This document shows, in pieces, positions 6,327 through 23,105 of a DNA stretch of 64,000 bases. The stretch is taken from positions 1 to 64,000 of IMG/VR virus record IMGVR_UViG_3300028800_000071. One strand, written 5' to 3'. Numbering within the stretch: position 1 is the stretch's first letter; each line of letters begins with the position of its first letter. The position numbers were made by a program, and so were the translations under genes. The DNA comes from a virus. The notes beneath the pieces were generated by a model. The model was not told the DNA's origin and ran no database searches. It saw only the letters and a program-made list of their open reading frames with translations.

Positions 6327-6865
6327 TGGCTGATGATTTAGTGGCGCGGCTGGAAGCCGTTGCGGAGCGTATAGACTTTATCGCGCCCGGGATGGCGGGT
6401 TGGGACGACATGACGGAAGGTAAGATATGCCGTAAAGCCGCCATCGAGATTGCAGAGTTGCGGCAGCAGCGCGACCATGCAATAGACGAAGGCAACGCAA
6501 CGTCTAAACTTTACGCAGAGTTGCGGCAGCGTGAGAGGGGCCTGCGCCGAGAGCGGATTACAGGCAAAGAATACGTCGAAGCGTCAGAAGCCATTTTGAC
6601 TGAACTTAAGTACCAGGATAGTCTTGAGCGCAGAACAGACGATGAGGCCAAAGACGTTCCGGGATTTCTCACTCTGCTCCGGCGGTACACCCGCATAGTT
6701 GAAGACTCTTGGTCTGATAATCCTGGGACCCCGCAAGAAGATGGCTCCGTACAGGTGGAGCAGGCGTTACACGGATTGCGAAAACTAGCGGCCATTTGTG
6801 TTCGAGCCATGATATATAACGGCATACGAGCCCGCGACATACTCGATGAGGCCCCAACAGCATGA
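6326..6865 (+). CDS. coiled-coil hypothetical protein, MADDLV family (unit 2)
   Basis: Anchors shared with 3439-4047. Confidence 0.7.
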   Translation: MADDLVARLEAVAERIDFIAPGMAGWDDMTEGKICRKAAIEIAELRQQRDHAIDEGNATSKLYAELRQRERGLRRERITGKEYVEASEAILTELKYQDSLERRTDDEAKDVPGFLTLLRRYTRIVEDSWSDNPGTPQEDGSVQVEQALHGLRKLAAICVRAMIYNGIRARDILDEAPTA

Positions 6866-6962
6866 GTAACACCTTTCTCCGCGCTCTCGACCACGGTGGC
6901 GAACCGAGCGATGCGGAAGTGGAAGCCTTCATTGTCGTCGCAAAGCGACGGGAGAACATTGC

Positions 6963-7277
6963 ATGACCGACGGCCATAAGATCGGCGCCGAGATCGAAGC
7001 CATACTCAAGAAGCACGTCGGAAAGTTAATCAGCGCGAGCGAGCACGACGTTCTCAAAGCACGCATCCGCGACGAAGTGCTCGACTATCTTCGCGGGCAT
7101 TACACGCCGATCAACTTCGGCGCCAAAACCCTCGACGACGTGGACGTAACGTTCAATAACGATCCGGCGGTACTCGCGGCGGGCGTGCTCGATCTCCGGT
7201 TCGTGCCGGCGACCGAACGCGGCCGCCAATGGCTCGCGTCGTTAATGGCGCAGGAGGGCGGCAAGACGACCGAGTAA
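6963..7277 (+). CDS. hypothetical protein
   Basis: GGAGA RBS; first gene with the high-GC codon style of the main genome. Confidence 0.7.
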   Translation: MTDGHKIGAEIEAILKKHVGKLISASEHDVLKARIRDEVLDYLRGHYTPINFGAKTLDDVDVTFNNDPAVLAAGVLDLRFVPATERGRQWLASLMAQEGGKTTE

Positions 7278-8725: not shown

Positions 8726-8758
8726 AACGGAACTGCGTAGCGGGTCCGTTTTTTGTTT
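8726..8758 (+). terminator. intrinsic terminator
   Basis: AACGGAACTGC-GTA-GCGGGTCCGTT followed by a T-tract. Confidence 0.65.
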
Positions 8759-8806
8759 AACGTTGAACGCAGGGAGCAAGCGGCGTTTCACGGTAACAGC
8801 GTTGAT

Positions 8807-9103
8807 ATGCGTGCGTGTAGCCGTTGCCAAGGGCCTCACGATCGAAACGGTCGATATTGTCGCGCTTGCCATGCGGAATATATGCGTACGTGGCGCCTTT
8901 CTCACCCATTAAAAGGCGAGCAGCGACGTAAAGATATCGCGCGAGCGTATGCAAACGTTTATCAGCGGCGCGGTCATTTGAAGCCGCGGCCGTGCGTCGA
9001 TTGCGGCGACCCGAAGTCGCAAAAGCATCACGAAGATTACAGCAAGCCGCTCGACGTGATCTGGCTCTGCCGATCTTGTCATCTAAATCGACACAAAGTT
9101 TGA
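8807..9103 (+). CDS. HNH-like endonuclease
   Basis: CVDCG...KHHEDYSKPLDVIWLCRSCH. Confidence 0.75.
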   Translation: MRACSRCQGPHDRNGRYCRACHAEYMRTWRLSHPLKGEQRRKDIARAYANVYQRRGHLKPRPCVDCGDPKSQKHHEDYSKPLDVIWLCRSCHLNRHKV

Positions 9104-10399: not shown

Positions 10400-11020
10400 A
10401 TGTCCGTCCAAAGTCCGCTCGGCGTCGGCCCCCTCATCGTGAAAGCGATCGGGTACGTCAAAGGCACGCTCGGAACGTATGCCGGCCTCACCGTCATTAG
10501 CGTCAGCGGGGGCAATCGGTTCCCGATCTCCCAACTCATCGCTACCGCCGTCAACCAATTCGCAAAAGCAACCGGCGAAGCCGGCGGCACCTGGGCGCTC
10601 AACGACACCGCCACGGCCACCATCAACGGGCACGCCACCGTCTACACCGCCGGCGCATCGCCAACGCCGACGAGTGTCATCGCCGGTCTTGCCGCCGCGA
10701 TCAACGCCGACAGCACCTCCAAGCTCATCGTCAAAGCCACCGCGCTCGGCAACGTGCTCACGGTCCGATCGCTCAACGCAGGCGCCACCGGCGAATACAC
10801 CTTCGTCCTCACCAAGAGCAGCAGCGGCACCCTCGTCGCCTCCAACGACGAGCTTCAAGTCGGCCAAGGCGAGCCGGGCGCCGGCCTCCCGGCCGATCTC
10901 TCGCTCGTGCGCCACATGACCCGCAATGCCGTAGCGCTCGGGTCCGGCGGCGGATCCGGCGTCACCTACGACCAAACGGTCGACAACGCCGTCATTGACT
11001 ACGTAACGCAATACGGATAA
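10400..11020 (+). CDS. putative virion structural or decoration protein
   Basis: G/A/T-rich beta-type sequence with IAGLAAAINA...VKATALGNVLTV, seen in virion accessory domains. Confidence 0.55.
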   Translation: MSVQSPLGVGPLIVKAIGYVKGTLGTYAGLTVISVSGGNRFPISQLIATAVNQFAKATGEAGGTWALNDTATATINGHATVYTAGASPTPTSVIAGLAAAINADSTSKLIVKATALGNVLTVRSLNAGATGEYTFVLTKSSSGTLVASNDELQVGQGEPGAGLPADLSLVRHMTRNAVALGSGGGSGVTYDQTVDNAVIDYVTQYG

Positions 11021-11472
11021 TGTCCGACGGCATCAAAGCGGCCGAAGCTATCGTCCGCGATCACGCCCGCGAAAGCGGAGCAATCTCAGCCTTCCTCGAC
11101 AACTACACACCGGGCGAAAAGGCCGCCGCGCACGTCATGGTCTGGGACCATCGCGTCATCGTCGTCGGCCACAGCCACAATCAAGCCGCCTGCGTAGCTA
11201 TGAGCTCGGCCATCCAAACCACCGCCGCGATCGCACGAGCGCTCAGAACGGCCGAGAGCGTCGAGCTCTACAAAACCGTCCACGGCGAGCCCGTGTACGA
11301 TATCATCTTCAAACAAGGCAAGCGATCACGCCTCATCGTCGCCGCCCTACTTTCATCGTTCGCCGGCATTGCCAAAACGGCCGACAAAACCCCAGGCGAT
11401 GCCATGGTGCTCACCGATCACCGCAAACTGATCCCCGATACCAAAGATGCCGCGACAAACGCCGCTTCTTGA
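11020..11472 (+). CDS. Prp (YsxB/DUF464)-like cysteine protease
   Basis: VIVVGHS...AACVAMSSAIQT resembles the Prp GH(A)...VCAAVS..QT His-Cys dyad; later helix LIVAALLSSFAGIA. Confidence 0.6.
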   Translation: MSDGIKAAEAIVRDHARESGAISAFLDNYTPGEKAAAHVMVWDHRVIVVGHSHNQAACVAMSSAIQTTAAIARALRTAESVELYKTVHGEPVYDIIFKQGKRSRLIVAALLSSFAGIAKTADKTPGDAMVLTDHRKLIPDTKDAATNAAS

Positions 11473-11851
11473 GGCGCACGAAGATAATCTCGATGAAGCC
11501 TACAAGCTCGCCGTAGCAGAACGGTTCCTTCACCAAGATTATATCTACCTCGTCGTCGAGCCCAAAGGCAAAATCGGCAAGCATATCAACCTCTGGGAAG
11601 ATTCGATCGGCGAGGTCGTCGGCCGCAAGTTCTACGACGACCCCGACTTCGGCGACACGGACTACGAAGAAAAAACGGTTCAACCCGATCTCATCCAGCG
11701 CCGCACAACCCAAGCCCTCATCGTGCGAATGCGCATCGCCGACGTCATGGAAGCCGTACGGCGCCGTGCCCGAAACGAAATCCGAGAAGAACAGGCGCCG
11801 ATAACAGCAAACCAAATGCGCGGCAACGGCCGCGCCAATCTCGCGCGCTGA
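11447..11851 (+). CDS. hypothetical protein
   Basis: ORF with typical codon usage. Confidence 0.65.
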   Translation: MPRQTPLLEAHEDNLDEAYKLAVAERFLHQDYIYLVVEPKGKIGKHINLWEDSIGEVVGRKFYDDPDFGDTDYEEKTVQPDLIQRRTTQALIVRMRIADVMEAVRRRARNEIREEQAPITANQMRGNGRANLAR

Positions 11852-11888
11852 CGCGCAAACGAAAGGGCGGCGATGATGCCGTAAATAC

Positions 11889-12425
11889 ATGGCTGGACGC
11901 TCAAAGGTCAATTGGCTTGCCATCCGTACCGCCTACGTGGTGCAACAATGGACAGCCGAGCGCTGCGCCAAAGAATTCGGCCTCGATCCCACCACTATCA
12001 GAAAACGCGCCTCTAAAGAAGGCTGGACCCAAGAACGCCATCGTCTCAACACGCACGCGGAGGACGTTGCTGACGAAGCCGTCCAGAAAGCCGTCAATGA
12101 TGCCGCTCGCAAGCAGCAAATGGTGCTCGATGGTTTGATCTTGTGGTCGGCGCAGTTCATCCGTGATTCGAACAACGATCTCGGGTTAATCAAGAATCCG
12201 TACTCACGGGTTCGAGCTCGCCGCGACGTGATTGAAATGATCGGCACGTTTGCCAAGACGCATCAGATCGCCAATATCGATAGGCCGCAAGAGCGTGATG
12301 ACACGTTGACGATCGTGCAGCAGCGCGTGGAGCCCTATAAGATCGCCGTTGGCGAAGATGGCCGTGCGATACCGGAGCTCATGCCGCCAGACGATGACGA
12401 CGGAGAACCCGACGACGATGACTAA
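11889..12425 (+). CDS. terS: terminase small subunit
   Basis: N-terminal HTH NWLAIRTAYV...CAKEFGLDPTTIRKRASKEGW; upstream of TerL. Confidence 0.75.
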   Translation: MAGRSKVNWLAIRTAYVVQQWTAERCAKEFGLDPTTIRKRASKEGWTQERHRLNTHAEDVADEAVQKAVNDAARKQQMVLDGLILWSAQFIRDSNNDLGLIKNPYSRVRARRDVIEMIGTFAKTHQIANIDRPQERDDTLTIVQQRVEPYKIAVGEDGRAIPELMPPDDDDGEPDDDD

Positions 12426-12702
12426 CGTGATCGGCCGGCACGTTGCCGCCTATGCCGATGCCGAGAACCCGGGCGACTTTTGGTTTCGACCTGGCTACAG
12501 CGATCGGGTCATCATGATGCTCTCGTACTTGTGTCCGCAATGCGGCGAGCTTCGGTGCGTGCCGATCTCGCTCTCGCCGGCGACGAATCGGTGGGATTGG
12601 GATGGCGAGTACGATCGCCCAACGCTCAAGCCGTCGATCCGTCAAATGGACGGGTGCCAATGGCACGGATGGCTCACGAAAGGCATCTGGGTAACGGCGT
12701 GA
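12418..12702 (+). CDS. DUF6527-like Cys/His/Trp protein
   Basis: CPQCG...WDWDG..PTLKPSI...CQWHGWLTKGIW. Confidence 0.65.
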   Translation: MTNVIGRHVAAYADAENPGDFWFRPGYSDRVIMMLSYLCPQCGELRCVPISLSPATNRWDWDGEYDRPTLKPSIRQMDGCQWHGWLTKGIWVTA

Positions 12703-14135
12703 TCGTTCGCCTGCAACACCTGCCGGCGCAAGACGACTTCTACAACGCGCAAGAAGATCAGATCTCATTCATCGGTGGCCTCGGCTGCGGCAAGACGCGC
12801 GTGGCATCCGACGACGTACTGCGCACCGCTGCAATGTATCCGCATTGCGGTAAAGGCGAGCGCACACCCGGCATTGCGATCTGCTCGAACACCTTTCAGC
12901 AGCTGATCGACGGTACGATGGCCACCTTCTTCGAGCGATGCGAGGAGAATTGGAAGGTCCATTATGTCGACCGCATCCGCGCCGAGCACAAGATCTACAT
13001 AAAAGAGTTTGACGCCTGGATCGGCGTCTATTCGGTTGACGAACCCGACAAGTTCAAATCGTACGAGTTCTGCTACATTTGGATTGACGAAGCGCAAGCC
13101 GACACGTGGAACAAGCCGGCCTACGACAAACTGATCGGCCGTCTGCGTGGCACCGTACGCCAACGCAAACTCTATCCAGACATGGAACTCCGCGTACGCA
13201 TCACGGCTAACCCGCCGTGGACAATGGATCATTGGCTCGTTGATCTCAACACCAAGAAGAATGCCGAGACCGGCCGCGCGCCGTCACGGCTGATCACCGC
13301 GAGCACGTACGACAACCCGTTCTTGCCGGCGCAATACATTCAGCGCCTCAAAGAGAACTTCGACCCCGAGCTCGCCGAGATCGAAATGGGCGGCAAGTTC
13401 GGCGATATCGGCTTCGGCCGCATCTTCCGCCGCTTCTCCCGCAGCAAGCACGTCTTTGATGCCGAGCGCGCCGAGAAGTATGGCCTGCCGCCGATCGTCG
13501 CCGACCCGAACCTGCCGATCTGCTGGTCGCACGACTTCAACGTCGATCCGCTCTGCTCGGTGATCTTCCAATGGCGCCGTATCAGAGTGAACGGCTTCCA
13601 ACGCGTGGTCATGTACGTGCTGGACGTGATGCAAATCCGTAACTCGCTCGTGGAAGAAGCCGTCAAAGAGTTTCTCAATCGCCGGCCGTACGTCAAGATC
13701 GCACGGCGCCGTGGTTTGATTCTGTACGGTGACGCCACCGGCAATACGCAAACCAACCGGCAGACCGGCCTTACGGACTTCGAGGCGCTCACGCAAGAGC
13801 TCGAACGCAACGATCTCTGGGGTTCGATCGGGCAGAAGCAAGTCGGCATAGCGAACCCCGAGCGCATCGCTCGGTACGCCGCCGGCAATCGGATGCTCGA
13901 AGATTCAACCGGCAAGATCGGTGTCGTGATGAACGAAGGCACGACCGAACCGCTGGTCATCGACCTGGAACGAATGTTCTACAAACCTGGAACTCGCAAC
14001 GTCGAGATTCCCAAATACAAAGATGGCAGACCCACGAAGCTCTTTACTCACTTGGCAGACGCGTTCTCGTATCCGATCGCACAGGACTTTCCGGTGCGCG
14101 TAATCGAGAGCGCCGAGCCTACAACGTCGAGGTAA
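12699..14135 (+). CDS. terL: terminase large subunit
   Basis: Walker A GGLGCGKT, Walker B YIWIDEA, TANP, nuclease DFNVDP and HLADAFSY; GTG 12699 overlaps the upstream stop. Confidence 0.93.
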   Translation: MIVRLQHLPAQDDFYNAQEDQISFIGGLGCGKTRVASDDVLRTAAMYPHCGKGERTPGIAICSNTFQQLIDGTMATFFERCEENWKVHYVDRIRAEHKIYIKEFDAWIGVYSVDEPDKFKSYEFCYIWIDEAQADTWNKPAYDKLIGRLRGTVRQRKLYPDMELRVRITANPPWTMDHWLVDLNTKKNAETGRAPSRLITASTYDNPFLPAQYIQRLKENFDPELAEIEMGGKFGDIGFGRIFRRFSRSKHVFDAERAEKYGLPPIVADPNLPICWSHDFNVDPLCSVIFQWRRIRVNGFQRVVMYVLDVMQIRNSLVEEAVKEFLNRRPYVKIARRRGLILYGDATGNTQTNRQTGLTDFEALTQELERNDLWGSIGQKQVGIANPERIARYAAGNRMLEDSTGKIGVVMNEGTTEPLVIDLERMFYKPGTRNVEIPKYKDGRPTKLFTHLADAFSYPIAQDFPVRVIESAEPTTSR

Positions 14136-14142
14136 AACAATC

Positions 14143-15042
14143 ATGGACGGCAATATCGGCAACGATTTCAACGAGCAGATCAAGGAAGGGCTCGAGGATC
14201 AAGAAGGCGTCGGCGACAATCAGGTCACGGACGGCACCGGCGTTGAGAGTGCCGATCAGACGCAAGACCGGCTTCGTGGCGAAGGCCCCGGCGCGCAAGG
14301 CGACGGTCCCCAGGAAGATGACCCGATCACCGGCCGGCAGGGCATCGATCGGCCTTCTGCCGGTGCCAAGAGCGGTGCAGAGACCGAGTACGATCCCAAC
14401 CGCGCCAACGCGGCCGGAATGGGCGAAGGCGCCGGCCATGCGCCGGTCCCGCACGAGCAGGACCGCACCCGCGACAAGGTGATCGAGCTCAATCCCGACG
14501 AGACCGAGCGCACCGATGCCGACACCGGCTTCGACGAGATCGACAACGTGCGACCGGGTGACGCCGCCGCCGACGAGCTCGGCGAGCGTAGCGGCTATCT
14601 CGGCCAGGATCGCACCGAGGATGCCCCGGGTGGTCCGCTCGTCGATCACACCGCCTTCGGCGAGAAGCTCATGCAGATCGCCAAGTTGTTCGTCACGCAG
14701 TATTCGGTCAATGCCTTCGGTTGCAAAGCGGCGATCGACAAATACATGGCCGAGCATCACCTCGCCGGCAGCACGCTCATCACCGAAAACACCAACACCA
14801 ACGCAACGGCGCCGGTGATCAACGTCACGGTCATTCTCGACGACGAGCAGCACCTGTTCTACGTGTCGCTCAAGCGCGGCGATCAAAACCTCGTCGGCGA
14901 AGCCGTCGTGTTGCACGACAACACCGAAGGCAAAGACGGCGTAGTGGTCGACAAAAGCGGAGATCCGTTGCATCGGTACGTTGACCGCCCGGTGACTACG
15001 AGCCCCGGCGGCCCGCACGAGCACCCGCCGTACGATCGGTAA
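14143..15042 (+). CDS. acidic low-complexity hypothetical protein
   Basis: D/E/G-rich N-terminal half; GAGG RBS. Confidence 0.7.
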   Translation: MDGNIGNDFNEQIKEGLEDQEGVGDNQVTDGTGVESADQTQDRLRGEGPGAQGDGPQEDDPITGRQGIDRPSAGAKSGAETEYDPNRANAAGMGEGAGHAPVPHEQDRTRDKVIELNPDETERTDADTGFDEIDNVRPGDAAADELGERSGYLGQDRTEDAPGGPLVDHTAFGEKLMQIAKLFVTQYSVNAFGCKAAIDKYMAEHHLAGSTLITENTNTNATAPVINVTVILDDEQHLFYVSLKRGDQNLVGEAVVLHDNTEGKDGVVVDKSGDPLHRYVDRPVTTSPGGPHEHPPYDR

Positions 15043-15070
15043 TCCTTAACCCCCGAAAGGGGAACCCAAA

Positions 15071-15340
15071 ATGAACACACTTGAGCAACTTGGTCTCGCG
15101 CTCGCATTCGTCCAACTGTGCATCGGCGTTGGTGTAGTTGTCAGCGGAAGTGAGATCGTTAAACGTCTTGATACGATCAAGAAAAACACAGACGGCACGC
15201 TGACAGAGTTGCGGAAAAGGAACATAGTCTTGCAAGACGGCAAGGACGTTCTACGGGACGAGAAAGAGGTGCTCGTGGATAAGGTTCACCTCGCTTCGAC
15301 TACTGCTGCCACACGGAAGCGCAAGACACGACGACGTTAG
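15071..15340 (+). CDS. single-TM protein with coiled coil and basic tail
   Basis: Hydrophobic N-terminus; RKRKTRRR C-terminus. Confidence 0.6.
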   Translation: MNTLEQLGLALAFVQLCIGVGVVVSGSEIVKRLDTIKKNTDGTLTELRKRNIVLQDGKDVLRDEKEVLVDKVHLASTTAATRKRKTRRR

Positions 15341-15353
15341 CCAAAGAGGAACA

Positions 15354-15830
15354 ATGATCGAGCTCAAGCAGCTGGCAGAACTCGCCAGCAAGTTCCCGAT
15401 GCTTCGCCTAGAGATCGCCACCGGCACGGCGATCACGATCGAAAACGGTTCGGTCGGCGAGCATCCGTACCAACGTGCCGTCATGCACGTGAGCGATGGC
15501 GACGAAAAAGGTCAATCGTTCGAGTTCTCCGGTGTTGGCGATGGCGTAACGGCGTTGCGCCTCTGTCTTGCGCTGCTCGGTCAACCGAATACCGATCACG
15601 CCAAGGTTGCCCCGGCGGTAGAGATCGCCGGCAGAGCAATGCCGCCGGTCGAGATCGAGGAAATCAGCGAAGGCGAGCAAGACCCGCCGGCCGTCGCGCC
15701 GCCGCCGCCACCCGCGACGGCATCGCGCTTTGCCGATCGGCAGCAACAGCCCGAGCAAAAGAAGTCGCGATCGGCAAACGGCAAACAGCCGGTCGTCGCC
15801 GGCGCAAGCTCAACACTACTGCGCCTCTAG
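15354..15830 (+). CDS. hypothetical protein
   Basis: GAGGA RBS. Confidence 0.65.
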   Translation: MIELKQLAELASKFPMLRLEIATGTAITIENGSVGEHPYQRAVMHVSDGDEKGQSFEFSGVGDGVTALRLCLALLGQPNTDHAKVAPAVEIAGRAMPPVEIEEISEGEQDPPAVAPPPPPATASRFADRQQQPEQKKSRSANGKQPVVAGASSTLLRL

Positions 15831-15842
15831 GAGATCCCGAAC

Positions 15843-16190
15843 GTGCATGAATCCGTAGAGAACTACGCCATTGGCGCAGGCGGCAACTATGACTTCCTCG
15901 ATAGCGGCACACCGAATGTTGCAAGTCTCGGTAGTCCGCGCCTCGGCCAACCGAACCGGCTAACGTTGGCCGTGTGGTCGGTCGATAACGCGAGCACGTT
16001 CACGGTCTTTGTTTCGTACGACAAAACGATCTGGGTGCCGGCGACACTTCGCGGCACCGCCACGAAGGTGAGCATCGTAGCGGCCGGTAGCGGCGACGGG
16101 CTTGCCGTTGAGATCACGCCGGCGCCATACGTGCGCATCCATTCGAGCGCGGCGTGCAAAATGTTCGCCTGGGCTTATATCTCCAACTAA
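15843..16190 (+). CDS. hypothetical beta-rich protein, possibly structural
   Basis: AGGAG RBS; alternating beta pattern ending in PYVRI. Confidence 0.6.
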   Translation: MHESVENYAIGAGGNYDFLDSGTPNVASLGSPRLGQPNRLTLAVWSVDNASTFTVFVSYDKTIWVPATLRGTATKVSIVAAGSGDGLAVEITPAPYVRIHSSAACKMFAWAYISN

Positions 16191-16193
16191 CGA

Positions 16194-17945
16194 ATGGACT
16201 TACTCGCTTACCGAGCGTCGATTGCGAGGCTGCAATCGTCGCGCTGGACGCCGCGTCAGAAGCGCCTCAACGCGCTCTCTCTCATTCTGCGCGGCGCCCA
16301 ATACTCGCATATCCGAGCGGCTTTCTCACAAGAGCGTAAGGGCGACCCCTTCACAGGCCAACGCCTCCTGCTCGACGATCGCCGCCCGGCCGTGCAAGCT
16401 CGGTTGCCGAAGGAGGCCGTGCGTGATCTGTGCGGCCTCATCTTCGGCGAAGATCGCCGGCCGCTCGTGCTCGTCAAAGACGACGAACAGCAAGACAACA
16501 AGCAAAAGAAGGCGACGGCCGACGGCGAAGGCGCAGCGCCAAGCCCGCCGCCGTCCGATCCCACCGAGGATTGGATCACCGCCTTCATCCACGACACCAA
16601 GTTTTGGCTCACGCTGCTCGATGCGCTCTGGAAGGGCTCCGTCGGATCGGCCGCGATCGTGCTGCGCGTACTCGGCAAAGAGAAAGCCGTCAACGCGGAA
16701 GTCGATGGCGAAGTCGTGCAGACGTACGAAGCCGATGGCGCCGGTCATTATTATTTTGAAGTGTGGCGCGGCGAGGAATGCTCGCCGATCTTCCGCACCG
16801 ACGATCCCGATATGCTCCAAACGCTCGAACGGCGGTACTTCATCGCCGACGATGCGTTGCGTGCGCAAGGCTACGACGTTGATGCGCTCAAAGAGAAGTG
16901 GAAGAAGAAAGCCAAGCGCAACCGATCGCCATTAGTCGGCGACGAGTGGGCGGTTCGCATTGTGCTCACGGCCACCGAGGAGCAATGGTATCTGCCGGTT
17001 CCGCGGCACGTGTACGAGCGCACCGATTGGAAAGATACCGATTGGGCGCTCGATAACGGACGCTCGTTCATGCACGAGCTCGATGAAGTGCCGGCCGAGT
17101 GGGTTGTGCCGCTTCCGATCGACGCCGACGAGCTCTATCCCGACGGCGCGTGTCTGTTCGAGGATTGCATCGATCCCGAGTTTCGCCTCAATCGCACGTA
17201 CTCGCAGGTCGGCCGTGCATTCGACTACAGCGGCGATCCGCAAATGTCACGGCTGCGTGACGAGAAGGGCGGCGTCCCGCGCTCGCAGTTCGGCACCGCA
17301 ACGGCGCTCGGCGGCACCGCATCCGACGTTCTTGAAGGCGATGCCAAGTTTGTCGAGATCACCGGCCAAGGTTTAGAGATTGCGATCGGCACGTACGCCG
17401 AAGCCGTGGTCGATCTCGGGAAACGCGCCGCGGCCATGAGCAGAGTGACGCCGAACTCTAAGACCGGCGCTTCGCTCGAGCTTTCGTCGGCGGCGATGAA
17501 GTTTCTCAACAGTTCGCAACTGACGCTCGCCGGCATCCTGCGCGAAACCGCAGCGGAGAAGCCCGGCGATCGGATGCTGCGGCTTGCCATGCGTATGTGG
17601 GATAAGGTCACGGTGGCGTTGCCGTCGCTGCAAAAGCCGGTCAAGCCAGATCCCGAAGCTCGCTTTGAGTGGCAATGGCCGGCGTACTACGAGCCACACG
17701 GCCAAGAGAAAGTCTTTGAGGTACAGGCGATCAACACGGCCAAAGAAGGCCAACTGATCTCAAGCCAAACGTCTGTCGGCAATGCCGCACCGTTGTTCGA
17801 CGTAACGGACCCCGATCGCGAAGCCGAACTCATCCAAGGCGACACCGAACAGGCGAACGCCGATGAAGTGATGCAAGCCGATGCGCTCGGCGAAGTGCAA
17901 GCCAAACACGCAGTAAAGCCTGGCGCCGGTGATGGCGCCAAATAG
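16194..17945 (+). CDS. portal protein
   Basis: 583 aa between terminase and scaffold/capsid; GRAFDYSGDPQ, SSAAMK, WQWPAYY and LISSQT match portal patterns. Confidence 0.8.
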   Translation: MDLLAYRASIARLQSSRWTPRQKRLNALSLILRGAQYSHIRAAFSQERKGDPFTGQRLLLDDRRPAVQARLPKEAVRDLCGLIFGEDRRPLVLVKDDEQQDNKQKKATADGEGAAPSPPPSDPTEDWITAFIHDTKFWLTLLDALWKGSVGSAAIVLRVLGKEKAVNAEVDGEVVQTYEADGAGHYYFEVWRGEECSPIFRTDDPDMLQTLERRYFIADDALRAQGYDVDALKEKWKKKAKRNRSPLVGDEWAVRIVLTATEEQWYLPVPRHVYERTDWKDTDWALDNGRSFMHELDEVPAEWVVPLPIDADELYPDGACLFEDCIDPEFRLNRTYSQVGRAFDYSGDPQMSRLRDEKGGVPRSQFGTATALGGTASDVLEGDAKFVEITGQGLEIAIGTYAEAVVDLGKRAAAMSRVTPNSKTGASLELSSAAMKFLNSSQLTLAGILRETAAEKPGDRMLRLAMRMWDKVTVALPSLQKPVKPDPEARFEWQWPAYYEPHGQEKVFEVQAINTAKEGQLISSQTSVGNAAPLFDVTDPDREAELIQGDTEQANADEVMQADALGEVQAKHAVKPGAGDGAK

Positions 17946-17947
17946 GA

Positions 17948-18928
17948 GTGATTCCTTTGTTCCACGATCTGCAAGCAATGTTTAGCAAATGTTTTATCCG
18001 ACCGTCGATTATCAAACGTCTCAACGACCGCTTCTTAGGACCGACGTTGCCTCCGTGGCAGTTGGCGATCTTCGACGGTGAAGGTGGGGACGGCGGTGGC
18101 AATGGCGGCGACGGTGGCGCCGGTGACGGCGGCGCTGGTGCTGGTGATGGCGGCGCAGGGGCCGGTGCCGGTGATGCCGGTGCGGGCGCTGGTGCTGGTG
18201 CAGGCGACGGTGGCGCAGCCAGCGGTGCAGCCGCAACGCGTTCTAAGGAGCGCACCAATAACGGCGATGACCGCGGCCGCGATCGCAACGATCGAGGCAA
18301 TGGTGGCGGCACAGCCCGCGACAACGACGGCCGATTCACCAACGAAGAAGTGCAACGCGCCAATCAGCGCATCGCCGAGCTCAACGAAGAAAACAAAAAC
18401 CGGCGCATCGAAGCGCGCGAGCTCAAAACCGAAAATGGTCTCTTGCGTACGCGCGCCATCCACGAAGATGCCAGCCGCGCCGTTATGGCCGCAGGAGCGG
18501 TGAGCGAACGCATCGTCGATATGTTCCTCGAAGATATGGGCGAGGCGATAACGCTCGACAAGAAAACCGGCCGGACCGTCGGGCTCGAGAAACTCGGCGA
18601 TTGGAAGAAGGCCAACGCGGCCTTATTCAAACCCGAAACCGAAGGCGGCGACGGTGCCGGCGACGGCAACAACGGTGGTGCCGCAGCTGGTGCTGGTGAC
18701 GGCGGCAACAACAACCAGCAACGAACCAATCGCACGTCCAACGGTGCCTCTCGCGGCGCCGGCGCGGGCGATCAAGGTGGCGGCGGCCGCGAAGGCCTCC
18801 CCGATCTCACAAAACTTGGTACTCCCGCCGAACGTAAGCAGGCTCTCCGCGATTGGAAGCGCGGCTTGCGTGGCGGTGGTGGCGGCGGCTACGGTGGTGG
18901 TCGCGCTTCATCCAACAAAGCCTCGTAG
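17948..18928 (+). CDS. capsid scaffolding protein with N-terminal LAIFD motif
   Basis: Gly/Asp low-complexity tracts, coiled coil IAELNEENKNRRIE, WKKANAALF; position before the capsid gene; start codon uncertain. Confidence 0.8.
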   Translation: MIPLFHDLQAMFSKCFIRPSIIKRLNDRFLGPTLPPWQLAIFDGEGGDGGGNGGDGGAGDGGAGAGDGGAGAGAGDAGAGAGAGAGDGGAASGAAATRSKERTNNGDDRGRDRNDRGNGGGTARDNDGRFTNEEVQRANQRIAELNEENKNRRIEARELKTENGLLRTRAIHEDASRAVMAAGAVSERIVDMFLEDMGEAITLDKKTGRTVGLEKLGDWKKANAALFKPETEGGDGAGDGNNGGAAAGAGDGGNNNQQRTNRTSNGASRGAGAGDQGGGGREGLPDLTKLGTPAERKQALRDWKRGLRGGGGGGYGGGRASSNKAS

Positions 18929-19071
18929 CTTTTCCCGTAGGCGTTGACGCCTGCCATCGGTCCCTTAGTCCCGAAACCGCGTGACGCGAGTGTGAAGGGG
19001 CATTTCGATCGGCACCGCGCGATGCGGAGTACGCCGGTTCTGCTTCTCCCCCATAAGGAAACGCGACAATC

Positions 19072-20577
19072 ATGCGCGGACAGAATCAACGCAACGTCGT
19101 CGTGCTGCCCGATTACCGCTTGGCGATCTTCGATATCGCGGATCTGCCCTCGCAGTTGCAGCCGATGCTTCAGGCGGGCTTTCTCGCCACGTCGTTCGAA
19201 GATTATCTGGAAGCACACAACGGTTATTGGGAAGGCGTCGATGACGAATCGTTCGCCGAATCCATCTTCGAAAAGAACCGTGGTGTGACGATCACCCGCA
19301 CCCGCCCCGGCCTCAAAGCGCCGGTCGTGGTTGCGGCCGACCCCGTTCAGGCGCAAACGCCGCCAAACGATGGCGTTACGCCGTCGGACTTCTACGTTGA
19401 GCAATACACCTTCGCGCCGTTCGAGCTCACGGACGGCATCGATCTCGATCTCATCGGTACGAACTTCGCTATCGTCGATCGCTTCGAGCACGACGTGCGC
19501 GTGTCGTATCACCAGGGCGTGCAATCGGTCGATCTGCTCGCTCGCGACACGTACCTGGCTGCCTACGGCGCCGCGTACACCGTCCTCACCGGCAATATCT
19601 CCGGTGCCATCATCCCGGTTGACGATATCCGTGGCTTCACCACGGTCATCACCGTCGGCCCGGGCGGCACCAACGGCGTATTGACGGCCGTTTCCAGCGG
19701 CGTCCCGCTGCCGTGCTTCATCTACGTCGGCGGCGATCCGACCAACGTCAAGACGTGCAACGTCACGCTTGCCGCTGCGGACGTGACCAACGTTTCCAAC
19801 TACGTGCCCTACGGTGCGCCGTACGGTACGCCGGGAGCGCCGACGGCCGCACGCGGCAACGGCGTCTCGGGTCACCTTACGCTCGCGAGCATCCAGGGCG
19901 GCTACTCGCCGGTCACGGGTGACGTGATCGTTGCGGGTGACGCGCCGATCCAACTGTTCGCAGGCGGCAGCACCCACTTCTCGCAAGTGACCGGCGGCAT
20001 TTCGCAGAGCAACGTGCTCGATGCAACCGGCTACTTGGAGAACAACGCGGTGCCGCATTCGCGCAACGCCGGCGGTGACGACGAAGGCACGTACGTCTGC
20101 CATGTCGCGCCGTCGATCAATCGGCAACTGTTTGCCGATCCCGACTTCAAGCAGGCGAATCAGACGCTCGGGAAATCGGATATCTACCAGCAGGGTGTGG
20201 TATCGCGGTATTGCGGCGTCACGTTCCTCAAGAACACGAACGCTCCGCGTATCGCTCTTGCGCCGTACGGTGGCAAGGGCTACGCCTACGCAACGGTCAT
20301 CGCCGGTCAAGGCGCCCTGATCGATGCGTGGTACGAGGGCCTCGTCGATTGGGTGGAATCCGCATTCCAGCCTGGTCTCGTCGAGCTCAATCGTGGCATC
20401 GCTCAGATCCTCATGCCGGCATACGCCGATCGTCAGGGTCGCCGGATGCACATCGATTGGCTCACGATCCGCGATATGGTCGCGCCGACCGACGTCACCC
20501 GCTCGTCCGTGATTCTCACGGGCACCGGCGGCCGTCGCGCTCGTGCGGTCATCATCTGGAGCTGGTCGGCAACCTAA
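19072..20577 (+). CDS. major capsid protein
   Basis: 501 aa after scaffold, AAGGA RBS, followed by a terminator; QLFADPDF...GVVSRYCGVTF. Confidence 0.85.
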   Translation: MRGQNQRNVVVLPDYRLAIFDIADLPSQLQPMLQAGFLATSFEDYLEAHNGYWEGVDDESFAESIFEKNRGVTITRTRPGLKAPVVVAADPVQAQTPPNDGVTPSDFYVEQYTFAPFELTDGIDLDLIGTNFAIVDRFEHDVRVSYHQGVQSVDLLARDTYLAAYGAAYTVLTGNISGAIIPVDDIRGFTTVITVGPGGTNGVLTAVSSGVPLPCFIYVGGDPTNVKTCNVTLAAADVTNVSNYVPYGAPYGTPGAPTAARGNGVSGHLTLASIQGGYSPVTGDVIVAGDAPIQLFAGGSTHFSQVTGGISQSNVLDATGYLENNAVPHSRNAGGDDEGTYVCHVAPSINRQLFADPDFKQANQTLGKSDIYQQGVVSRYCGVTFLKNTNAPRIALAPYGGKGYAYATVIAGQGALIDAWYEGLVDWVESAFQPGLVELNRGIAQILMPAYADRQGRRMHIDWLTIRDMVAPTDVTRSSVILTGTGGRRARAVIIWSWSAT

Positions 20578-21853: not shown

Positions 21854-22647
21854 GCTCGACGCGGATCGAGTATCTCGACAGCAAGATTCAATACGGGCGC
21901 GGCAAGGCCGCAACCGTTTACGGCCAGACGTTCAATATCTACCGGCTCACCAATCAGAGCGGCTCGATACTCGATGGCCATCCGATCTTTGCCGACTTTC
22001 CGCTCTCGCCGATCAAGACCGGCAAAGGTAAGGTCGAGAACCAAGTTTACGACCTGCAAATCTTCGACGCGGCGTTCGACAACACGCTACTCAAGCTCGG
22101 CGACTACTTCGTCGAGGTCGGGCAGTTTGACGATCGCGAACCCGATCACCTGATCTTTGCGCAACGCCGACCTTTCCGTGGCCGCTCGCTCATGATTCGG
22201 TGTGAATCGAACGTTACGATCACGCGACCGCAGCCGCTCGGCGGTGGCTCTGGCCAACAGCCGCGTTCTGGCGGCATTCGTGCCCCCGGCTATATCGGCA
22301 TCACGAAAAAGAACGAGCGCGGGATGCTGCTCGCCAACGGAATGTACTTTTTCAGCAACTCGCTCGTCACGACGCCGATCGCCAACTCCGAAGCGTCGGG
22401 GTTGGCGGCGGTGCCGGCGGCGCTGTTGCAACTCAATCGCATTCGCGATGCTACGATCCCGAAGTTGCCCGTGTCGCTCTTTCGCGAGCATTTTGTCATC
22501 TATATCCCGCCGCTCAATGGCATCATGCTACAGGAGCTCGATCGGTTGAACTTCCAGAACTCGGACCGCTACGAGATCGGCTCGCTCTTTCTGAGCGAAG
22601 AAGGCTTCGTCGGCAACATTGCGATCTGCGAGAAGCTCGGCACGTGA
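21850..22647 (+). CDS. putative head closure or neck protein
   Basis: Position; KIQYGRGKAA...FNIYR, DRYEI. Confidence 0.6.
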   Translation: MSSTRIEYLDSKIQYGRGKAATVYGQTFNIYRLTNQSGSILDGHPIFADFPLSPIKTGKGKVENQVYDLQIFDAAFDNTLLKLGDYFVEVGQFDDREPDHLIFAQRRPFRGRSLMIRCESNVTITRPQPLGGGSGQQPRSGGIRAPGYIGITKKNERGMLLANGMYFFSNSLVTTPIANSEASGLAAVPAALLQLNRIRDATIPKLPVSLFREHFVIYIPPLNGIMLQELDRLNFQNSDRYEIGSLFLSEEGFVGNIAICEKLGT

Positions 22648-23105
22648 CGGAGTTTAAGTACGTGCAGCGCGCCGGCGGTGATGCGCCGGCGCCAGCACAG
22701 AAGCCGCCAACGAGCAAGGTGATTGCACCCGGCCCGCGGCCGACGGCGATCATCGCTGACGATTCGGGGCCGACGCGCCGTCGCTTCCTTAGTCTGCTCA
22801 CGCTCTGCGGCGTACAAGTGATCGACCAAGCAACGTCGGGGCAAGAGGCGCTCTGGAAGTGCCGTAAGATGAAACCGCAGATCGCCGTGCTCGACGTAGC
22901 GATGCCGCCTGGCAGCGGGTACGACACGGCGTTGAAGTTGGCCGATAGCCAGATCGTGCCGCATATCATCGTGGTTTCGTCCAACTCGCAAGGGATGGTT
23001 TTCGAACCGTTACGCAAGGCCGGCGTCATGCTGCTCACCAAGCCGGTCAACGACGATCAGTTCATCAAAGAGATAAAGGCGATGATAGCCGATGGCAACG
23101 CTTGA
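22644..23105 (+). CDS. single-domain response regulator (CheY-like receiver)
   Basis: IIADDS acidic pocket, LDVAMP phospho-acceptor, IIVVSS, LTKPV. Confidence 0.88.
   Translation: MTEFKYVQRAGGDAPAPAQKPPTSKVIAPGPRPTAIIADDSGPTRRRFLSLLTLCGVQVIDQATSGQEALWKCRKMKPQIAVLDVAMPPGSGYDTALKLADSQIVPHIIVVSSNSQGMVFEPLRKAGVMLLTKPVNDDQFIKEIKAMIADGNA

Follow-up and report, generated by a model that had tools for sequence, protein, structure and literature searches.

How a contractile-tailed phage with no recognizable HK97-type prohead protease could mature its capsid is the question raised by the IMG/VR virus record IMGVR_UViG_3300028800_000071 (80,795 bp; CheckV completeness 83%; G+C content about 60%). Among the proteases with which tailed phages mature their capsids, nearly every one is a serine protease of the HK97/herpesvirus or the ClpP type. 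We analyzed the first 64 kb of this record (64,000 nucleotides, referred to here as the window), in which a late operon on the + strand holds a 206-aa open reading frame (ORF), a protease candidate (ORF 11020-11472), a 134-aa ORF, and the genes for the terminases, portal, scaffold, and capsid. A sequence-only reading of this DNA had proposed a self-contained maturation system in which the candidate, a cysteine protease resembling Prp, cleaves a LAIFD motif shared by the scaffold and the major capsid protein. The predicted fold, the catalytic dyad, the shared motif, and the co-occurrence of motif and protease all support that proposal, the novelty of which was somewhat overstated. We infer, with a probability of roughly 65%, that a phage-encoded Prp-type protease cuts scaffold and capsid at LAIF|D, a statement that covers the activity of the enzyme, the identity of its substrates, and the position of the bond.

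A predicted, divergent Prp-type protease in the late operon

The candidate ORF reads ...VVGHSHNQAACVAMSSAIQT, with His51 encoded at 11170-11172 and Cys58 at 11191-11193. A homology search returned eight close relatives, and a collection of 1.84 billion proteins yielded just 24 clusters (50% identity) for the whole family. No members were found in 185,579 species genomes (pattern scan) or in 50,697 phage records (tblastn), and a scan of metagenome contigs for further loci yielded one 2.6-kb fragment (L088). We worked with two alignments, one of nine close relatives (A1) and one of 24 diverse relatives (A2). His51 and Cys58, along with A60, Q66, D133, and R135, were invariant in the 24 relatives, down to 22% identity.

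Searched against all PDB sequences, the A2 profile had a sole match, the Thermotoga Prp TM1457 (1S12, E 3.3e-4), in an alignment spanning profile positions 37-125 and chain residues 3-87. The profile segment ...GHS.NkAaCvA.S... aligned with ...GHAPDKTLCASVS... of TM1457, placing GH-x6-C on GH-x6-C with the same His-x6-Cys spacing, so that in the HMMER sequence alignment His51 fell on the TM1457 His and Cys58 on its Cys. The corresponding dyad of S. aureus Prp is His22 and Cys34. The A1 profile gave only a chance match to MurD; TM1457 was reached only with the more diverse alignment. The Pfam model for Prp, PF04327, matched neither the ORF nor its close relatives even at an E-value of 10, found nothing in a six-frame search of the genome, and matched one of the 24 relatives (E 0.049). 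Comparison of the family with orf13 of the pneumococcal phage Cp-1 by hhalign revealed no detectable similarity (probability 0.7%).

The predicted structure points in the same direction as the profile match. An AlphaFold2 (AF2) model, made from the close relatives, had a predicted local distance difference test score (pLDDT) of 77 overall and about 86-94 across most of the core. It consists of an N-terminal helix (residues 1-28) followed by a beta-beta-alpha-beta-beta-alpha-beta core (residues 36-139; strands E37-41, E45-49, E78-85, E91-97, and E129-133, helices H55-74 and H101-121); the topology of the C108 family begins beta-beta-alpha-beta (PMC9405229). The top 12 Foldseek matches in the PDB were all Prp chains (E 3e-5 to 5e-3), from S. 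aureus (7KLD, 7JVS, 4PEO), T. maritima (1S12), S. mutans (2G0I/J), and S. pneumoniae (2IDL). In VIA-align, all seven Prp entries scored Z 11.0-14.0 with root-mean-square deviations (rmsd) of 1.8-2.5, led by 1S12 (Z 14.0, rmsd 1.9, 93/94 residues) and with 7KLD at Z 12.7, compared with Z 6.1 for the first unrelated fold. Identity to the solved Prp structures in these alignments was 9-16%. In a viral structure library, the nearest neighbors of the model were phage proteins that bear the annotation 'YsxB-like' or 'cysteine protease', and the Cp-1-like Streptococcus phage SOCP contributed a further structural neighbor. The protein's own model in the ESM Atlas had a pLDDT of 0.41, and its matches scored below 0.8, which made that comparison uninformative.

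On the grounds of the fold, the TM1457 profile match, and the invariant His and Cys, the ORF is a remote Prp homologue with an intact dyad, yet it is not a PF04327 member by curated thresholds. The best explanation is that it encodes a highly divergent, phage-borne member of the Prp superfamily (MEROPS clan CR, His-Cys proteases). Both the Prp fold and the His-Cys dyad had been anticipated from the letters of the ORF, and both were borne out.

One motif on two head proteins

The scaffold N-terminus reads ...TLPPWQLAIFDGEGG, with LAIFD at 18062-18076, and the capsid begins MRGQNQRNVVVLPDYRLAIFDIADLP, with LAIFD at 19120-19134 (residues 17-21). A run of 14 nt, TTGGCGATCTTCGA, is identical in the two genes. 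These positions, sequences, and identical nucleotides were all as the sequence-only reading had given them. The six frames of the 80,795-bp genome contain exactly two copies of LAIFD and exactly two of the longer pattern P.[YW].[LM][AF][IL]FD, all at these N-termini, against chance expectations of 0.06 and 0.0 copies, respectively (means of 200 first-order Markov random genomes). The predicted cuts lie before the Asp codon at 18074-18076 in the scaffold and before that at 19132-19134 in the capsid, where they would leave DIADLP.

The shared motif is a trait of a clade. In all five clade records from IMG/VR (the window and L003, L005, L006, and L007), scaffold and capsid carry the same N-terminal motif. 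A whole-protein search with the scaffold was dominated by low-complexity words and returned one homologue. The motif conforms to LP.[YW].[LM][AF][IL]FD in six scaffolds, those of the five records (LPPWQLAIFD, LPPYQLAIFD, LPDYVLALFD, LPEYMMFLFD, and LPPYILAIFD) and that of the homologue P0043 (LPPYTLAIFD). In every case a low-complexity linker follows, the composition of which differs completely among records. The linker is made of Gly/Asp/Ala in the window (18077-18300), Pro/Ala in L003 and L006, Asp/Thr/Pro/Lys repeats in L007, and Gly/Ser/Asp in L005.

The most likely start of the scaffold, judged from its sequence context, is TTG at 17957, since AGGAG lies 8 nt upstream (17944-17948) and the resulting N-terminus matches that of P0043. 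A GTG at 17948 and an ATG at 17978 were considered as well and rejected in favor of TTG on the same AGGAG spacing and P0043 N-terminus. With this start the scaffold propeptide would be about 39 residues long.

Capsid relatives mark the predicted boundary from the other side. By tblastn and pattern search we collected about 80 capsid loci. About 75 of these are remote (29-34% identity, including Ralstonia phage Raharianne and Komagataeibacter phage phiKX1) and start M-[GPAS]-I-[QS]-N-F-P-A-A-L-Q-P, which aligns with D21/I22-A-D-L-P-S-Q-L-Q-P of the window, directly after LAIF. The sequence-only reading had stated that related capsids begin about there, and they do. An extension ending in the motif was found only in the five clade records and in eight further capsid clusters of a large protein collection. 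It is 15-28 residues long and variable except for its end, [LM]P-x-[YW]-x-[LM]-A-I-F-D, in which P13, A18, I19, F20, and D21 are invariant across 12 clade capsid sequences. A cut after Phe would make the mature end as long as that of the relatives once their Met is trimmed. The stretch from the motif to the conserved capsid N-terminus contains no start codon, and public gene calls, made independently, begin the capsid 5' of the motif. A scan of IMG/VR for DNA able to encode AIFDIA.[LF]P (degenerate pattern) recovered the four clade records already known along with five chance matches in unrelated frames, and none of the latter five records held a protease homologue.

Relatives spell the motif with many synonymous codons (L as CTG, TTG, CTC, CTT, or CTA; A as GCG, GCA, or GCT; I as ATC or ATT; F as TTC or TTT; D as GAT or GAC), so that selection acts on the protein. 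The identity of the 14 nt, although correctly observed, is incidental and reflects which codons happen to be used. At the protein level, the hydrophobic residues of the motif at P1, P2, P4, and P6 (F, I, L, and Y/W) fall where S. aureus Prp buries F, F, L, and L of its L27 peptide (PMC9261936). We also co-folded the core of the protease (residues 30-140, alignment A2) with residues 1-45 of the capsid (alignment A4); the score of 0.01 is no evidence either way on binding.

Protease and motif occur together

A profile search of the six-frame ORFs of 86 loci found the protease homologue in the window, L003, and L005 only, each time 5' of the terminase and followed by the same small ORF. Whole-record searches confirmed it in L003 and L005. 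Three further pairs of capsid and protease clusters derive from single contigs, matched by equal size and source (75,447, 73,388, and 18,790 bp). The homologue was absent from the six-frame ORFs of about 80 motif-less loci and from five motif-less whole records, among which the genomes of Raharianne and phiKX1 are complete. The protease was not seen without the motif among the loci whose context was read, a set that does not include the 20 or so more distant members P0010-P0030. The proposed link between protease and motif thus held in three records directly and in three cluster pairs, with two complete motif-less genomes free of the protease.

Searches for other head proteases with PF04586, PF00574, and PF01343 detected their control genomes but matched nothing in the 80,795-bp record, which is 83% complete. 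Genes for S78, ClpP/S14, S49, or Pfam-defined Prp proteases are not detectable in this genome. The earlier statement that no HK97-type prohead protease is recognizable is therefore sound. A search with PF03420 (S77, T4 gp21 type) missed its controls and carries no weight.

Proposed mechanism and alternative explanations

In the mechanism that we favor, the protease, which is made from the same late operon as the terminase, portal, scaffold, and capsid, would recognize the N-terminal signal [LM]-P-x-[YW]-x-[LM]-A-I-F-D common to scaffold and capsid and would cut after Phe (LAIF|D), where the exact bond could be F|D or D|x. Such a cut would take about 39 residues off the scaffold and 20 off the capsid while the procapsid is being assembled or thereafter. 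Once mature, the capsid would begin DIADLP... and match the natural N-terminus of the protease-less relatives in length.

Several observations weigh against this mechanism. The ORF had no match over threshold in Pfam, PHROG, or NCBIfam. S. aureus Prp accepts only a small residue at P1', which is predicted to be Asp here. L006 and L007 have the motif, and whole-record searches detected no protease in either. Both are fragments: the contig of L006 (52% complete) has 494 nt ahead of its terminase gene, and in L007 (24% complete) the 3.7 kb 5' of the terminase hold no protease homologue. The protease gene is not adjacent to the scaffold gene but lies about 6.5 kb 5' of it. The staphylococcal phage 80alpha can do without capsid cleavage, and its scaffold N-terminus contributes to assembly in its own right (PMC5744158), so the motif may have a function besides, or in place of, that of a cleavage site.

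The 80alpha findings give rise to the most serious alternative, namely that the motif is mainly an assembly or folding signal, such as a docking peptide for a chaperone, for the portal, or between scaffold and capsid, which is not removed or is removed only incidentally, and that the Prp-fold protein has another target in the virion or host. The 80alpha scaffold N-terminus is needed for assembly whether cut or uncut (PMC5744158), and in the window terminase and portal genes stand between the protease gene and its presumed substrates. Against this, remote relatives build a capsid of the same fold although they have no extension, their N-termini fall precisely where the motif ends, and motif and protease gene appear jointly. 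The motif is found on no other protein of the genome, its hydrophobic pattern fits that of Prp substrates (PMC9261936), and the flexible linker after the scaffold motif is typical of an exposed cleavage site. We therefore regard this alternative as unlikely.

It is less likely still that a host protease cuts the motif and that the Prp-fold protein of the phage is not the enzyme. This is what happens in 80alpha (PMC5744158), and our comparison covered phage proteins. On the other hand, the phage has its own Prp-type gene with an intact dyad that co-occurs with the motif. Moreover, with a G+C content of 60% and with distant relatives of the capsid among Ralstonia, Komagataeibacter, and Streptomyces phages, the host probably lies outside the Firmicutes and the other phyla in which Prp and a long L27 are known (PMC9405229). 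Scans with the protease and capsid alignments found no related prophage in the 185,579 species genomes. That the extensions are start-codon artefacts, or that their similarity is a DNA-level repeat (a recombination or regulatory site) without a protein signal, is scarcely credible despite the 14 identical nucleotides, given that relatives keep the amino acids while changing the codons and that neither the absence of an internal start codon nor the independent gene calls leave room for a shorter capsid.

Cleavage at LAIF|D by the phage's own protease, which remains the reading that we prefer, would also have an evolutionary side. A protease-less head module (P22-like or Raharianne-like) may have gained a complete maturation system in one lineage, by capture of a diverged Prp-type protease and evolution of matching propeptides on both proteins, with the new specificity LP-x-[YW]-x-[LM]-AIF|D. 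Clan-CR proteases would then be a general class of prohead protease that is recruited independently, outside low-GC Gram-positives and with no link to L27. We consider the chances of this broader scenario to be about evenly balanced. If cleavage does occur as proposed, the same maturation logic operates in a contractile-tailed phage of 60% GC with a different, sharply defined recognition motif, and a protease family pursued as an antibiotic target has a new specificity. The protease-less relatives would mark where the propeptide was added and offer a natural before-and-after pair for asking why capsids gain propeptides. The alignments additionally provide a seed for annotating a protein family now called 'hypothetical'.

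Gene order and neighboring genes

The features of the late operon are listed in Table 1. Pfam, PHROG, and NCBIfam assign no family to the 134-aa ORF. Its homologues (blastp; L003, E 3e-15; L005, E 5e-12) are found at 1718-2083 in L003 and inside an ORF at 9133-9702 in L005, both directly before the large terminase, and it could be a variant of the terminase small subunit or a partner of the protease. The true start of the large terminase is probably near 12699, as relatives align only from about residue 57-76 of the ORF.

Table 1. Features of the late operon in the window, with the evidence for each assignment.
Feature	Coordinates	Strand	Evidence or remark
206-aa ORF	10400-11020	+	Stop overlaps protease start (TAATG)
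Candidate Prp-fold cysteine protease, 150 aa	11020..11472	+	AF2 model, Foldseek, VIA-align, family profile
134-aa ORF	11447..11851	+	Overlaps protease 3' end; homologues directly after protease gene in L003, L005
Small terminase subunit (putative)	11889..12425	+	PHROG 1206, E 2e-7
Large terminase subunit	12480..14135	+	Pfam Terminase_3 E 1e-13, Terminase_6N E 7e-11
Portal protein	16194..17945	+	blastp to annotated portals of Raharianne, phiKX1
Scaffolding protein, probable TTG start 17957	17957..18928	+	Pfam Phage_scaffold E 5e-5; PHROG 194 head scaffolding E 4e-6
Predicted scaffold propeptide, ~39 aa, end LPPWQLAIF	17957..18073	+	Conserved motif at scaffold N-terminus
Major capsid protein, 501 aa	19072..20577	+	PHROG 1357 major head protein E 1e-8; tblastn to Raharianne, phiKX1 capsids
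Predicted capsid propeptide, 20 aa, end LPDYRLAIF	19072..19131	+	Start of remote relatives; conserved extension

Four ORFs without a family assignment separate the large terminase from the portal, which matched the annotated portals of Raharianne (E 2e-33) and phiKX1 (E 2e-19). A 115-aa ORF just 5' of the portal (15843-16190), without a family assignment, is kept in L006 (53% identity) and L007 (45%), and in L007 a Cys-rich ORF (6613-7206), zinc-finger or HNH-like, is inserted between its counterpart and the portal. The large-terminase ORF of L006 (494-2845) encodes 784 aa compared with about 470 in the others, and the large terminase of the window aligns to its first 450 residues only. A frame overlapping this gene (2080-2694) has an HNH-like motif (HHID…N), and the L006 ORF may carry an intein or a homing-endonuclease insertion. 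In the window, about 2.8 kb 5' of the small terminase, a 116-aa ORF (8753-9103) with paired CxxC motifs and a C-terminal …HHEDY…CRSCHLNRH resembles an HNH endonuclease.

Genes 3' of the capsid include those for the tail sheath, tape measure, and baseplate wedge, which indicate a contractile tail and agree with the earlier description of the phage as a myovirus. A stand-alone gene for a CheY-like receiver domain (…VVIADD…) occupies the same place in the neck and tail operon of all five clade records (window, 22644-23105; L003, 10179-10526; L005, 18038-18445; L006, 13113-13508; L007, 13910-14305) and is thus a conserved trait of this phage group and not an oddity of one genome.

Comparison with known systems

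To our knowledge, the Prp route of head maturation is known from two phages of Firmicutes only, 80alpha with the host enzyme and Cp-1 with its own. Prp itself (YsxB; MEROPS C108, PF04327) is the protease that processes the N-terminus of ribosomal protein L27 in Firmicutes and related phyla (PMC9405229), and what the sequence-only reading had said of L27, 80alpha, and Cp-1 agrees with the literature (PMC5744158, PMC9405229). The ORF of the window has the Prp fold over its whole length (Z 11-14), with His after strand 2, Cys in the first turn of helix 1, and the TM1457 spacing between them. Like L27 (LQFF|A), the predicted substrate places Phe at P1, and its P2, P4, and P6 positions are hydrophobic (PMC9261936, PMC9405229). 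In contrast to Prp, the ORF product carries about 30 additional residues as an N-terminal helix, falls below every curated family threshold, and is phage-encoded rather than part of an rplU-prp-rpmA operon. Its predicted site, LAIF|D, has Asp at P1', where Prp sites have Ala or Ser, and is preceded by a conserved LP-x-[YW]; its predicted substrates are phage proteins rather than an L27 extension.

Raharianne and phiKX1 have homologous capsids (about 30% identity over 95% of the length) and portals in the same gene order as the window. Their capsids, however, start M-P/A-I-[SA]-N-F-P with no extension, and their complete genomes are without a protease homologue.

In 80alpha, scaffold (SP) and capsid (CP) share an N-terminal motif that is cut after Phe by the host Prp, and the phage has no HK97-type protease (PMC5744158). 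The window likewise has one N-terminal motif on both proteins and no HK97-type prohead protease, with cleavage as a prediction. While 80alpha borrows the host enzyme and copies the L27 motif, the enzyme here is phage-encoded and the motif is unrelated to that of L27. The number of residues removed in 80alpha is 13-14, compared with a predicted 15-28 for the capsids and about 14-46 for the scaffolds of this clade.

Cp-1 uses its own clan-CR protease to trim an N-terminal extension of its major head protein (PMC9405229), and its orf13 matches PF04327 over the full length at a sub-threshold E of 0.0024. It resembles the window in encoding a Prp-related cysteine protease and in the extension of a head protein. 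Unlike Cp-1, a 19-kb phi29-like podovirus of a low-GC host, the phage described here is at least 80 kb long with 60% GC and a contractile tail, and its scaffold carries the motif too. Prp-like proteins ('YsxB-like' or 'cysteine protease') are already annotated in several uncultured phages, which is why the earlier claim of novelty was somewhat too strong. What is supported as new is an enzyme family missed by current models, a new motif, and another phage type and base composition. By analogy, the proposed system would combine both precedents, the shared motif of 80alpha and the phage-encoded protease of Cp-1.

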